In this document: one piece after another, positions 23,968-38,725 of the stretch | Numbering within the stretch: the first letter of the stretch is position 1 | Layout: the number at the start of each line of letters is the position of its first letter | Sequence record: PP886230 | DNA from: Escherichia phage vB_EcoM_E9.1 | Strand: one strand, 5' to 3' | Length of the DNA: 64,000 nucleotides | Made by a program: the position numbers and the translations under genes | Notes under the pieces: generated by a model | Databases searched by the model: none | What the model was told of the DNA's origin: nothing | The model's input: the letters and a program-made list of their open reading frames with translations, nothing else

Positions 23968-24630
23968 ATGATGAAAACAAAATTAGGTTTGTTTTATAAA
24001 AATTATTTCGTTAAACAGCGTAAATTTATAAAAAAATATTTCTCTGGTGAGAAGTCTAGTCCTATAATTTTTAAAAGACCAAGTTATAATACTTACTTAG
24101 CGGGTGCTAAACAGTCTAAGAAATTTATTACTCTTTTAAATAAAAACAAAATTAAAGCTTCTTATGTTGAAACGAGAAGAAACTCATCAATAACTCCTGG
24201 TGATTTTATTGAGTACGGATGTTTCAATATTAAGTATAATGATAATACATACTTTATGGATATTGATTGTAATACATCCAATCTTTTTAACATTGTAGTA
24301 AATCCATTAAAACAATATAATGTTTATGGTGATGCTATTATCAAATTAATCAAAAACAAAGATGGCTTTGATTTTGAAATAAATGTTTTAGATGATAATT
24401 TTGACGAAGTACCCGTAAACCCTGAAATCTGTGATATTTTAAACAGTTTAAAAGGTAGTACCTACAATATATCATCTGATTTAATGTTTCAGTACTCATT
24501 AATCCATAAAGATATTGAAAAGTATATTGAATGTTCCAAAATTTTGAATTATCTTTACGATGAATTTAAAAAGAGTTCTAAAATAACCGCATACACTTTG
24601 TACAATATTCCTAAAATGGTGAATCTTTGA
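23968..24630 (+). CDS. hypothetical protein (220 aa)
   Basis: last plus-strand gene before the minus-strand array; RBS aggag. Confidence 0.5.
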   Translation: MMKTKLGLFYKNYFVKQRKFIKKYFSGEKSSPIIFKRPSYNTYLAGAKQSKKFITLLNKNKIKASYVETRRNSSITPGDFIEYGCFNIKYNDNTYFMDIDCNTSNLFNIVVNPLKQYNVYGDAIIKLIKNKDGFDFEINVLDDNFDEVPVNPEICDILNSLKGSTYNISSDLMFQYSLIHKDIEKYIECSKILNYLYDEFKKSSKITAYTLYNIPKMVNL

Positions 24631-25775
24631 CAAATACAGTACTGGCAACTCCACCGTCTGTAATATATTGTCCAGTACTGTAAATTTGTATACCATCGGT
24701 TAAGTAAGTTCTGTATAAAGTTGCTGTAACATATACGTTATTCATATTCATCTCTATTGGTAGTACACATTTGGTATAGGCCGACACATCTGTTTGTGTA
24801 CCTATACCCAATTGACCTGCGTTATCGCCTGTGTTATAACCAGTTGCGTAAACACCTAATGAAGTTATAATATGATTAGAAAAATATGAATAACCCACAC
24901 TGCTTCTTATTATATCACCTGGTGCTTGTGTTGTTTGTCTTAACGAAATATATGTTTGTGATGTAGAACCATTTGCTAACTGACCAAAGTATTGTCCACC
25001 ACCATGATATGCAAATAATTTATTAGTACTATTATTACTTGCTATAGCAAAAGCGAAGTAACTTGAGTTTGTTGTATAATCTTTCACCGTATAGGTATTA
25101 GTTATTTGAGAACATAACGTGTACTTTGAATATAACGTCATGTCGGTTGTACCTACGCCTGATATTGCACCAGTATAATACAATCTCCCATCGGTTCCAA
25201 TAAATCCTTGCATAAGAAAATTTGCCAGTATTTTGGATGGTGTTACTCCAGTAGGTACTGTTCCTTGTACAAATGATGAAAGTGAATCGGTACTTCTACC
25301 ATTTCCCAGTTGTCCATAACTACCATAACCCGTATTCCATATCGTGTTGTCTGTACATAATACGCTTAATGCACCTGCACTAACTGCAATTTGTTTTATT
25401 GTTTTTCCAAGTGCTGTTATTCTATCAAACACTATCTTTGCAGAAGCCCACGTTGTTGACTTATCAGTTGATAAACCGAATGATGCACCATTTCCAGCAT
25501 ACCACATCGTATTATCTTTCTTTTTAATTAATGTTGACTCATACCCGAACCCATAGATCTTCTACGTTTGTATTGCACAAAACCCATTTGGTTTGTGTTA
25601 TAATATTACCTATACCCATTTGCCCAAACTCTTGAGAGCCTCTACTGTACAACGTACCATCTGACATAAGGGCAAAAACTGTTGTATCAGATGAAGCTAT
25701 TTTTGTTACAGAAGGTTGTATGTTCTTTTTTGATGATGTGATAATTCTTCCAAAGGGTAGCATTGTATCCTCCAA
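24611..25775 (-). pseudogene. decayed RCC1-like cassette (frameshifted)
   Basis: two ORFs in different frames (25539-25775 carrying MLPFGRI leader, 24611-25507 carrying GQLGNG repeats); degenerate spacer upstream. Confidence 0.55.
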
Positions 25776-25835
25776 ATGTAAATCGTTATTATATTTAGGA
25801 CAAAAAAATGCCAGTACAAGGCACTGGCATAAAAT

Positions 25836-36367: not shown

Positions 36368-37546
36368 TTATCGGTTAAATTTAAAATCTGTTATGTGTGT
36401 CCATGTATGATTTAATGGGGTACTCATTGGTGTAAAGCCAGCAGGGTCTGACAAAGCTGTACCACGTGCGTACATAAATTGATTGCCAGTACAATCCATT
36501 ATAGCATAAGAACGTGTTGCTGTGCCACATTTGAACCCAACTGCACTACTTGGGGTCGGTAATACTTCAAATGTAGGTGCATTTGAACTACCACCCCCAT
36601 CTTTTGTTCCAGCTATGTACAGAACTCCATTAGTATCAATGATTAAGTTAGTCCAATATGCTTGTTCTCGACCAGCATAAAAATATGTTAAATCACCGGG
36701 TACAAATGGTAACGTTCCTTTATATATTGTAGTATTAACATTCACTGGTGCACCAGCTACACCCCATGAACTCATATAGTTTCTCCCACTTGAGTAGAAT
36801 GTAGTTCCTTTACCGTAAAGTATTAATGTTGCTTGACTTGTTCGCATTGCATTATATTCAAACTCAGGATCATCAGTAGCGTCCTTAAAAATCTGTGTCC
36901 ATGTTGTTATATTACCAGTAGTCGTAACACCCATTTGATAATAATAATTATCACCAGTAGCATAGAATTCTTTAGGGCCAGTTTGTACAATTGCATTCCC
37001 ATTAGTTAACCAAAAATCTAATGTATTAGTCTTGATCTTGGTTGGTGTGTAATTCGCCACGGTATTTCCTTTTCCGAAATAACCATTAGCGTTATTTCCA
37101 TGACCCCATAAATCACCATTAGTTGTGCGTAGGAATAATGTACCAGTATTGAATCCAACTTTTTCTATAGTACTTATGTCAATACCAACAGTCGTGTACT
37201 TCGTTGTAAAATCTTGAAAAGTACTCCAATAATTAGATGAACCATTAAACATGGTTTGTCTACCAGTGTACTTCACTTTATTATCGTTAGTGATAAGTAA
37301 TGTCCCCCACACTGACGCGAACATTAACTTAACATTTTCCATAACAAAGTATGGCTTACCGTATGCTGACGCGGTAGTGTTTAAACCTAATAGTTGTCCA
37401 TCATTACTACAACCCCATACTTCGCCGTTATCCAAAAGCATCAACATAGTAGGTTTGCCGGATGATACATCCAAAAAGAAATCTTTTGGTGTTGGTACGC
37501 CCGGTGCTTCATTTCCATAATTCAACATTCTTCCAAAAGGTAACAT
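36368..37546 (-). CDS. leader-tagged RCC1-like beta-propeller protein
   Basis: leader MLPFGRMLNYGNEAP. Confidence 0.7.
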   Translation of the reverse strand: MLPFGRMLNYGNEAPGVPTPKDFFLDVSSGKPTMLMLLDNGEVWGCSNDGQLLGLNTTASAYGKPYFVMENVKLMFASVWGTLLITNDNKVKYTGRQTMFNGSSNYWSTFQDFTTKYTTVGIDISTIEKVGFNTGTLFLRTTNGDLWGHGNNANGYFGKGNTVANYTPTKIKTNTLDFWLTNGNAIVQTGPKEFYATGDNYYYQMGVTTTGNITTWTQIFKDATDDPEFEYNAMRTSQATLILYGKGTTFYSSGRNYMSSWGVAGAPVNVNTTIYKGTLPFVPGDLTYFYAGREQAYWTNLIIDTNGVLYIAGTKDGGGSSNAPTFEVLPTPSSAVGFKCGTATRSYAIMDCTGNQFMYARGTALSDPAGFTPMSTPLNHTWTHITDFKFNR

Positions 37547-37615
37547 AGTTCCTCCTTTATCATTATACTATATTTAATACAAATAAGAAAGCCAGTATCA
37601 AGTACTGGCATCGTA
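37547..37615 (-). promoter_or_regulatory. cassette spacer: hairpin, -10 TATAAT, RBS
   Basis: same conserved spacer. Confidence 0.55.
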
Positions 37616-38725
37616 TTACTTGGGTAATGGAATTGTGGTCCATCTATTTGCGGCAACGTCACCTGGTACATATGTAGGACTACCACTTACAGCAATAGTT
37701 TCATTACCATCATATACAACACTGAAGTTTGTGCACGTATACAACGCTGCGGCATCTGGATTGTAATTTTCAAGTGTTAGTGTATTGGTGAACAAATTCA
37801 ATGCAGTAGTTGAGCCGTTTTTACCATATGCACCTGTAGTATATATCTTTCCTTCTGTTGTTGAGTACATATTAACATATGACCCAGATGATGATTTAGC
37901 AATTTTATCTATCTTGCTATCTATTGTTTTAGAGTTAAATTGAAATGGATATACCTGTACGTTAGTATCTAAACCATTTCCCAGTTCCCCATTTAACTGC
38001 CACCCTGTGTGGTACATTCCCGCATTTGTATATGCAAGCGTACTATACGCATTACCACCCATTATTTTAGTGCCAGATAATTTTAAACCAAACGATGTCC
38101 ACTTACCAGTTTCATTTCCTATGGAACCATAAGCACTTGTACCACACGCACGAAGCTCGCCATTTGACGTTAGAAGCACTGTATTATTAACGTTACCAAA
38201 TATATCAATAACCTGATTAGTGCCATTATTCAGTACTGAAGTAAAAGTACTCTGTGAGTAAGTACTACCTGAACCAACAGAACCATTTGTGTTCATACCT
38301 CTTCCATATACAATTTTACCATCAGCACTAACATAGTGCATTGAATCAAAACCAATGGATATCATTTTAATATCAGATATATCTGGAAATGAAGAAGTTA
38401 CATCTACTCCACCTAGTGGAATTGTATTATTTCCTAAACCTAATGAGACATTAGTTCCGTGCATTATAAATTTATCTTCTTTAAAATATAAAATATTATA
38501 TCCACCAGCCCATGCATTATTAACGCCATTTGTAATCAGTACCCATTTATTTTGTGTAGTAGTTCCAGTAATATTTAACTGTTGATAGTTATTGATTCCA
38601 CAACCATATAGCGATCCATCACCATATAGTACATATAAATTATCATATCCTGCAATAACTTTCTTTATTTTTTTGGGTACAGGTGCTACATTCCCATACT
38701 TTAACATTCTTCCAAAAGGTAACAT
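37616..38725 (-). CDS. leader-tagged RCC1-like beta-propeller protein (first cassette)
   Basis: leader MLPFGRMLKYGNVAP; divergent promoter region upstream. Confidence 0.7.
   Translation of the reverse strand: MLPFGRMLKYGNVAPVPKKIKKVIAGYDNLYVLYGDGSLYGCGINNYQQLNITGTTTQNKWVLITNGVNNAWAGGYNILYFKEDKFIMHGTNVSLGLGNNTIPLGGVDVTSSFPDISDIKMISIGFDSMHYVSADGKIVYGRGMNTNGSVGSGSTYSQSTFTSVLNNGTNQVIDIFGNVNNTVLLTSNGELRACGTSAYGSIGNETGKWTSFGLKLSGTKIMGGNAYSTLAYTNAGMYHTGWQLNGELGNGLDTNVQVYPFQFNSKTIDSKIDKIAKSSSGSYVNMYSTTEGKIYTTGAYGKNGSTTALNLFTNTLTLENYNPDAAALYTCTNFSVVYDGNETIAVSGSPTYVPGDVAANRWTTIPLPK

Follow-up and report, generated by a model that had tools for sequence, protein, structure and literature searches.

Leader-tagged RCC1-like cassettes in an Asteriusvirus coliphage as candidate interchangeable binding modules of the virion

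What would a large coliphage do with a dozen tandem genes that lie on the strand opposite to their neighbors and that attach one short N-terminal peptide to strongly diverged bodies? The question is raised by positions 24611-38725 (minus strand) of a 64,000-nt stretch of Escherichia phage vB_EcoM_E9.1 (record PP886230; the whole stretch is hereafter the window), which hold 12 tandem cassettes: 10 intact ones of RCC1 type, one glycine-rich and non-RCC1, and one frameshifted RCC1 cassette. Genes on both sides are on the plus strand. The original prediction, made from the sequence, had described a minus-strand array of 11 cassettes and a decayed one opposed to the flanking genes, and the open reading frame (ORF) listing, a motif scan, and the frameshift in cassette 12 all bear this out. 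The reading favored here, to which we give a probability of roughly one half, is that the cassettes encode interchangeable binding modules that are expressed late and attach to the virion through a docking peptide retained at their N-terminus. At stake is about 14 kb, or about 4% of the genome, which in every Asteriusvirus is labeled chromosome or DNA condensation on the strength of a eukaryotic family name only.

The window matches the approximately 350-kb Asteriusvirus coliphages SHEFM2K, SP27, slurp01, PBECO4, 121Q, phAPEC6, and G17 as a mosaic, at identities of 88-99%. Given this match to the 121Q/PBECO4/phAPEC6 group of jumbo coliphages, the DNA does not come from a T4-type phage, as had first been supposed. 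Records of these relatives label the array genes "regulator of chromosome condensation" or "putative DNA condensation protein" (PHROG 4219), and no relative has the array annotated as a tail-fiber locus, the case that the original prediction had named as telling against it. In phAPEC6, 11 RCC1-like genes were reported, with gp003, 005, 006, 007, 009, and 010 detected in virions, and the authors speculated that the proteins organize packaged DNA or the inner body (PMC7247149). The RCC1-like gp1 of GAP32 is a virion protein by mass spectrometry (MS), and 121Q and PBECO4 carry many copies (PMC5259590). A 2026 genome paper still names the array proteins chromosome condensation regulators. The published Rak2-like arrays of RCC1 paralogues (121Q gp234-248, PBECO4, phAPEC6 gp001-010, GAP32 gp1) are the same locus as the one in the window, although the literature views them as DNA-condensation candidates arising by tandem duplication and the cassette reading differs from this. 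In light of the earlier annotation and the phAPEC6 and CBB papers, the array as such was therefore already known, and the statement that it matched no described system does not hold. Beyond those two papers, nothing was found in the literature on the leader, structure, or localization of these proteins. What appears to be new, and was not encountered in the literature searched, is that the proteins have a leader in common, that this leader also occurs on other folds and is retained in virions, and that exchange between genomes is precise to the cassette.

All 11 intact ORFs (245-400 aa; ORF listing and six-frame motif scan) begin with the common peptide of about 15 residues that had been predicted, here with the pattern MLPF[GA]RM..Y[GA]N, and LPF[GA]RM does not occur outside the array in the six-frame translation of the 64-kb window. 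Four phage groups supply 57 distinct leader variants, which give the consensus M-[LI]-P-F-x-R-[MIL]-h-x-Y-G-N-[IV]-x-P. Copies in the window share 83% identity over their first 45 nt, compared with 31-34% over the next 100 nt, and 6 of the 10 invariant columns in a 20-sequence RCC1 alignment fall in residues 1-12 (M1, P3, F4, R6, Y10, and N12). In both AlphaFold2 (AF2) models that were built, of the RCC1 cassette 28261-29403 and of glycine-rich cassette 8 (Table 1), residues 1-20 are of low confidence and lie outside the fold. The predicted propeller of 28261-29403 is complete without them, and the leader is weakly predicted as a short helix. A Sec/Tat signal peptide or lipoprotein signal was rejected, as the leader has no hydrophobic core, twin arginine, or lipobox cysteine.

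Behind the leader, the 10 intact RCC1 cassettes and broken cassette 12 each match Pfam PF25390, PF00415, or PF13540, as well as phrog_4219, and within the window the bodies have a median pairwise identity of 29%. The model of 28261-29403, the only RCC1 cassette modeled, has a pLDDT of 90.3 and a pTM of 0.87, and Foldseek aligns it over its full length with the seven-bladed RCC1-like domains of UVR8, RPGR, RCC1, and HERC2 (E values down to 9e-21, TM about 0.75), at a sequence identity to RCC1 of 14-16%. RCC1 proper carries a basic DNA/histone-binding N-terminal tail; the N-terminus here is instead the hydrophobic MLPF..YGN leader. The expectation of RCC1-type bodies thus stands for the 10 intact cassettes and the broken one but fails for 29475-30212, whose glycine-rich product is not a propeller and has no Pfam match even at E ≤ 1. 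This protein, cassette 8, is modeled (pLDDT 93) as a β-sandwich followed by a glycine-rich domain with a polyglycine lattice, and the predicted fold resembles the cyanophage Pam3 tail fiber gp24, a solved receptor-binding module, and the glycine-rich domains of ALK. A profile of 72 glycine-rich homologues found no match among PDB sequences, so the fiber link of cassette 8 rests on structure comparison. Pam3 gp24 and S16 gp38 are built from an N-terminal attachment element, a central β-sandwich or a counterpart of it, and a glycine-rich domain that binds the receptor (PMC9608196). In S16/T2-type gp38 and Pam3 gp24, the N-terminus is thus the attachment element, as is proposed for cassette 8, but theirs is a helical domain where cassette 8 has a 15-residue leader, and there is no sequence-level match.

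Two side observations concern the N-termini of these families. The window proteins align only to the C-terminal parts of their PHROG profiles (positions 419-803 of 867 in phrog_4219 and 133-398 of 407 in phrog_4474), so some family members elsewhere carry long N-terminal extensions where the window proteins have the 15-residue leader. Homologues of cassette 8 in other phages and metagenomes mostly start with MLELL, MIELL, MLETL, or MIEAL, and a few with MLPFP. Judged from these sequences, lineage-specific N-terminal plugs on the same adhesin body may be a wider phenomenon.

In related jumbo phages, the leader is found in front of a range of other bodies. In CBB it precedes a glycine-rich body (CBB_144, with MLPFSPLIVYGNK), LamG bodies (CBB_548 and CBB_551), Kelch propellers (CBB_550, CBB_552, and CBB_554), and the further bodies of CBB_536 and CBB_537. 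It also precedes bodies of the GAP32_002 type, which have weak LamG similarity (GAP32_002, 7t3_0126, CBB_549, and CBB_553), and RCC1 bodies in GAP32_001 and several proteins of Salmonella phage 7t3. By their matches and models, the LamG, Kelch, RCC1, and glycine-rich bodies are all predicted binding-type folds. A leader-only tblastn search of 50,697 phage records returned 515 places in 60 records, all of them Rak2-like jumbo phages of 310-386 kb, with hosts in Escherichia, Salmonella, Erwinia, Yersinia, Cronobacter, Serratia, Pectobacterium, Klebsiella (fENko-Kae01), and Xanthomonas; the RaK2 and PhiK64-1 records gave no leader match in this search. One complete 352-kb genome has all of its 15 leader ORFs in a single array. 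Body homologues in other phage groups (PVP-SE1 gp18 and most glycine-rich relatives) lack this leader, as do cellular RCC1 proteins.

Published proteomics of relatives places at least 16 leader-tagged proteins in the virions of three phages. GAP32_002 is annotated as a "virion structural protein" in its record. In CBB, 8 of the 10 leader proteins are in the published MS virion proteome: CBB_144 (5 unique peptides, 34% coverage), CBB_536 (8, 41%), CBB_537 (2, 11%), CBB_548 (5, 26%), CBB_549 (6, 51%), CBB_551 (4, 24%), CBB_552 (2, 9.5%), and CBB_553 (7, 35%). Among the six proteins listed as "structural proteins of CBB absent from GAP32," five bear the leader. The CBB peptide report further includes LFEYANVIIPPNYK (CBB_536 residues 7-20), YANVIVEYATK (CBB_548 residues 10-20), and LLQYGNK (CBB_553 residues 7-13). 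These tryptic peptides cover the leader, and its core is therefore present in mature particles, although trypsin also cuts after R6 and the peptide data leave room for cleavage there. Regarding phAPEC6, its annotation has only a 303-nt ORF (gp004) at the cassette 8 locus, so the glycine-rich protein was probably absent from the MS search database of that study.

Virion association of array-type proteins would also suit capsid-internal cargo, the most serious rival and in our judgment an unlikely one. Here a leader akin to the T4 capsid-targeting sequence would direct polymorphic proteins into the prohead, inner body, or scaffold, perhaps to be ejected as anti-defense effectors. T4 provides the precedent, since its internal proteins carry a shared N-terminal targeting peptide of about 10 residues on diverse, polymorphic bodies encoded in tandem. 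The likeness to IPI, IPII, IPIII, and Alt extends to a conserved N-terminal tag of about 10-15 residues, to polymorphic virion proteins, and to genes lying close together. The large inner body of phAPEC6 (PMC7247149) and the weakly predicted helix of the leader also fit internal cargo. However, the capsid-targeting sequence of T4 is cut off at a gp21 site at its end, whereas neither the window copies nor the 57 leader variants have a conserved Glu-type (L/I-x-E) protease site in or after the leader, and leader peptides persist in mature CBB virions. On these two grounds a cleaved T4-type targeting sequence was rejected, although by themselves they are no proof of an external location. The array proteins are, moreover, near-neutral (net charge -4 to +4), and their bodies are adhesin- or lectin-type folds, unlike those of the T4 internal proteins. 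Internal cargo keeps some probability because proteomics cannot separate the inside of the particle from the outside.

The boundaries between cassettes are as constant as the bodies are variable. Spacers of 69-72 nt occur at nine junctions, in agreement with the prediction of an approximately 70-bp spacer before most genes, and the view of the cassettes as self-contained is supported. Each spacer runs from the stop codon through a hairpin (GCCAGTAC-loop-GTACTGGC), a T-run, and the A/T-rich box TAAATATAGTATAATGA to the Shine-Dalgarno sequence AAGGAGG and the ATG. The hairpin scan finds 10 terminator-like hairpins on the minus strand of the array; the annotators of G17 independently labeled these hairpins terminators, and the spacers fold better than shuffled controls (z -2.5 to -3.8). 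Upstream of cassette 1, the hairpin is missing because no cassette precedes it. At two junctions (35086-35093 and 27006-27013), only 8 nt separate the genes (TAG-GAGGGAAT-ATG) and the Shine-Dalgarno sequence is kept; lacking a spacer, the cassettes that follow (e.g., 4 after 3) are probably co-transcribed with the upstream gene.

The box has 13 matches in the window at ≤3 mismatches, compared with 1.6 expected by chance, and 9 of the 13 are in the array, each with 0-2 mismatches. Of 87 Asteriusvirus cassettes, 72 have TAAATA at -32/-31 from the ATG and the remaining ones are spacer-less; the background at other ORF starts of the window is 3%. It recurs at a similar distance 5′ of GAP32_001, GAP32_002, and several CBB and 7t3 cassettes. 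Structural genes of CBB and GAP32 are preceded by ATAAATA with an A/T-rich downstream region, which resembles the T4 late promoter TATAAATA (PMC5259590), and a sigma-70 scan found no enrichment (73 sites, 76 expected). The box thus looks like a late-type promoter, and the cassettes would accordingly be expressed late.

These boundaries are also where related genomes part company. Bodies of the leader ORFs of eight genomes, including ECO103, were clustered at ≥75% identity into 24 body types, which differ between genomes by insertions, deletions, replacements, and reorderings. In a map of seven genomes, with truncated or broken copies in parentheses, the orders are O L C A F D B G E H J (K) in the window, O L C A F D B (P) E I J (K) in SHEFM2K, D M A F B G R E (H) I N (K) in 121Q, S M A C Q B G E H I N J in phAPEC6, L C A F D B G E H I N J in SP27, C A F D B (P) E T U (K) in PBECO4, and V C A Q D M B G H W I in G17. 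The truncated and frameshifted copies (K, P, and, in 121Q, H) indicate birth-and-death turnover. When homology endpoints were taken as the internal ends of blastn alignments (≥400 nt, ≥85% identity) between the window and six relatives, 27 of 34 fell inside leader-plus-spacer intervals, which make up 10.4% of the array (binomial p = 7e-21), and 32 of 34 were within 30 nt of one. Orthologous bodies are under purifying selection (ratio of nonsynonymous to synonymous divergence, dN/dS, 0.05-0.39), and dS within the same set of genomes ranges from 0.00 to 0.48 depending on cassette type, a spread which indicates mosaic ancestry.

Exchange can also occur between leader and body. In ECO103 (OR844650.1, 327436-345200), 6 intact copies and a truncated one among the 15 cassettes carry the leader variant MLPFVR[ML]FDYGN rather than ..MVKYGN. 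This variant, with a charge change at position 9, stands on body types whose leader is K-type elsewhere, which shows that exchange does occur at the junction of leader and body. The variant may reflect two docking classes or a local conversion of leaders. A general homogenization of leaders within genomes by gene conversion is unsupported, as leaders of different body types are 0.831 identical within genomes and 0.824 between them, with ECO103 as a local exception.

The behavior of the spacers recalls the PeSLs, composite terminator/promoter elements that drive modular shuffling in T4-like phages (Arbiol 2010; Comeau 2014; PMC2839356, PMC4122927). By anatomy and behavior the two are alike, in that both join a stem-loop terminator to a promoter, flank variable genes, and contain the breaks of whole-gene insertions, deletions, and replacements. 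They differ in that the PeSL promoter is of the early sigma-70 type, while the window box (TAAATA) looks late-type, and in that PeSLs flank unrelated ORFans, while the window elements flank one functional class. Unlike in PeSLs, the homology patch in the window includes the leader and therefore reaches about 45 nt into the coding sequence.

Such constancy could be purely a matter of nucleic acid, with the boundary maintained for translation initiation, promoter activity, or recombination, the peptide functionless, and the proteins borne on virions by other means or present as contaminants. The conserved spacer and the breakpoints at the boundaries fit this account, and so do codons 1-7, in which the 11 copies show no difference even at 4- and 6-fold degenerate sites. 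From codon 8 onward (codons 8-15), however, the copies vary synonymously (TAT/TAC, GGG/GGA, CCT/CCA/CCG) while the amino acids, among them Y10, G11, N12, and P15, are kept, and P3, F4, R6, Y10, G11, and N12 are kept across genera with different codons and spacers. Retention of amino acids despite synonymous change, both within the window and across genera, points to selection on the peptide. Both spacer-less cassettes also keep the leader, and detection in virions is repeated in three independent proteomes. A boundary conserved for its nucleic acid alone is consequently improbable.

The role given in current annotations, condensation or chromosomal organization of the packaged 350-kb genome, fares worse and seems very improbable. 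The RCC1 homology is real, the proteins are in virions, and the role was proposed by the authors of the phAPEC6 paper. Yet eukaryotic RCC1 is linked to chromatin by its Ran-GEF activity and a basic tail, RCC1-like domains are generally propellers for protein interaction, and the RCC1 bodies here are not basic (isoelectric points 5.1-8.2). Generic packing does not predict eleven bodies at about 29% identity or an open repertoire of 24 types. The same leader is carried by lectin-like, Kelch, and fiber-tip folds, and CBB has leader-tagged proteins without any RCC1 gene (PMC5259590). With neither charge nor body diversity in its favor, the "DNA condensation" label has essentially no support.

Lastly, many β-propellers, RCC1 included, close their ring with an N-terminal strand, but the idea that the leader is such a "velcro" strand of blade 7, conserved for folding only, was rejected and retains hardly any probability, because the AF2 model of 28261-29403 places residues 1-20 with low confidence outside a complete propeller and the same leader precedes non-propeller folds.

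Among the candidate roles first put forward, variable ligand- or receptor-binding or virion-associated modules are thus the best supported, and the evidence can be arranged into one modular plan for docked binding modules. Each protein would join a short, retained N-terminal peptide to an interchangeable, independently folding domain of binding type, in the window ten RCC1 propellers and one glycine-rich adhesin domain like those of gp38 and Pam3 gp24. The leader would dock each protein onto a common site of the particle, presumably on its outside, where the domain could bind ligands. Most genes would be separate transcription units composed of a TAAATA late-type box, Shine-Dalgarno sequence, leader, body, and terminator hairpin. 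The boundary of terminator, promoter box, and leader would double as a homology patch through which bodies may be gained, lost, or swapped by recombination between co-infecting relatives. The lineage would in this way keep its set of binding modules open; these would probably be adhesins or decorations by which binding to hosts and surfaces is broadened or tuned.

Short docking peptides of this kind have precedent. Secondary receptor-binding proteins of K1-5/SP6-type phages, Klebsiella phages, PhiK64-1, and RaK2 dock through conserved N-terminal peptides of 7-11 residues (PMC6872550), and a report from 2026 validated the interaction by experiment (PMC13352976). The branched systems with multiple receptor-binding proteins (K1-5/K1E/SP6, KP32/KP34, PhiK64-1, and RaK2) share with the array a short N-terminal peptide on unrelated specificity modules, several alternative modules per genome, and modules that are virion components. 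RaK2 and PhiK64-1 belong, moreover, to the same broad Rak2-like group of jumbo phages as the phages with the array, although the supplements of Latka et al. contain no MLPF/YGN-like peptide for either. The modules of the branched systems are trimeric depolymerase tailspikes, whereas the array bodies are non-enzymatic binding folds (RCC1, Kelch, LamG, and glycine-rich), and the array differs further in bringing together up to 15 copies in a dedicated tandem arrangement.

Several points weigh against docked binding modules. The phAPEC6 RCC1 copies were detected at low counts, with 1-4 unique peptides each (PMC7247149), and virion MS does not distinguish the particle surface from the capsid interior. 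Leaders are 94% identical in nucleotide sequence between genomes for the same body type and 83% otherwise, such that they mostly travel with their bodies. Clustering of breakpoints is also to be expected if boundaries are kept for expression and bodies are replaced by other routes. To our knowledge, RCC1 propellers are mostly monomers that provide platforms for protein interaction, and they are not known to act as phage receptor-binding domains.

It is tempting to link the array to the hair-like fibers and the capsid or collar decorations of 121Q, phAPEC6, and CBB. Hair-like fibers are, however, also present in unrelated phages without the leader, for example Atu_ph07, and no Agrobacterium phage is among the leader matches, which likewise counts against the favored reading. 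A tentative extension goes further, with the leader as a universal plug by which one repeated docking site, possibly the hair-like tail or capsid fibers, might accept unrelated binding domains by the dozen, such that each particle displays a mixed, shuffled repertoire of adhesins. Such a repertoire would amount to population-level diversity in recognition, distinct from tail-fiber mosaicism and from diversity-generating retroelements. We consider this stronger version possible, though doubtful.

If the cassettes do encode docked binding modules, their products are candidates for the hair and decoration densities on 121Q, phAPEC6, and CBB particles, and they would point to a determinant of adsorption or host range in coliphages under development for therapy. 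The leader could then serve as a tag of 12-15 residues for loading chosen domains onto a jumbo-phage particle, and shuffling of the PeSL type would extend to late structural accessory genes outside the T4-like phages.

Table 1. Cassettes and intervening elements of the array in the order of transcription. The MLPF start codon of each intact cassette is at its higher coordinate; SD, Shine-Dalgarno sequence.
Feature	Body type	Length (aa)	Coordinates	Strand	Match
Region 5′ of cassette 1: TAAATATGATATAAT box, AAGGAG SD			38726..38800	-	
Cassette 1: leader MLPFGRMLKYGNVAP, RCC1-like propeller	O	369	37616..38725	-	RCC1_2 8e-11
Spacer: hairpin GCCAGTAC..GTACTGGC, T-run, TAAATA box, SD			37547..37615	-	
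Cassette 2: leader, RCC1-like propeller	L	392	36368..37546	-	
Spacer: hairpin, T-run, TAAATA box, SD			36297..36367	-	
Cassette 3: leader, RCC1-like propeller	C	400	35094..36296	-	
Cassette 4: leader, RCC1-like propeller, without spacer	A	369	33976..35085	-	
Spacer: hairpin, T-run, TAAATATAGTATAACAA box, SD			33906..33975	-	
Cassette 5: leader, RCC1-like propeller	F	379	32766..33905	-	
Spacer			32695..32765	-	
Cassette 6: leader, RCC1-like propeller	D	382	31546..32694	-	
Spacer			31475..31545	-	
Cassette 7: leader, RCC1-like propeller	B	396	30284..31474	-	
Spacer			30213..30283	-	
Cassette 8: leader, non-RCC1 body (predicted β-sandwich and glycine-rich domain)	G	245	29475..30212	-	
Spacer			29404..29474	-	
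Cassette 9: leader, RCC1-like propeller, AF2-modeled	E	380	28261..29403	-	
Spacer			28190..28260	-	
Cassette 10: leader, RCC1-like propeller	H	391	27014..28189	-	
Cassette 11: leader, RCC1-like propeller, without spacer	J	389	25836..27005	-	
Diverged spacer: hairpin GCCAGTGCCTTGTACTGGC, T-run, CTAAATATAAT box, GGAGG			25764..25835	-	
Cassette 12: RCC1-like, diverged leader MLPFGRIITSS, ATG at 25763, frameshifted	K (broken)		24611..25763	-	

Cassette 12 is split into a 5′ piece of 74 aa (25539-25763) and a 3′ ORF of 298 aa (24611-25507), and the break is common to SHEFM2K, 121Q, and PBECO4. Salmonella phage 7t3 (L010, 2874-3995) also has a broken RCC1 cassette, with a 3′ ORF that begins at the homologous M-W-Y motif. 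The shared break may be a coincidence, or it may mark an ancient pseudogene or a leaderless functional product. Within cassette 8, the long alternative-frame and antisense ORFs at 29516-29824 (minus strand) and 29809-30063 (plus strand) are by-products of its GGN-rich coding sequence.

Elsewhere in the window, a scan for tRNA genes found none. Approximately 25 tandem paralogous genes of 59-77 aa, many with products ending in LKLISI or LLIYRY, occupy 38829-43620 on the plus strand (PHROG 11711 in the SHEFM2K annotation). They are followed by an ORF-poor interval (43620-45500), and the GC skew switches sign near 44 kb. Directly upstream of the array, at 21825-23926 on the plus strand, are six tandem, strongly hydrophobic paralogues of 104-141 aa that resemble membrane proteins. 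The CBB leader cluster (CBB_548-554) also adjoins an opposite-strand run of "putative membrane proteins" (CBB_539-547), so this neighborhood is conserved across genera.

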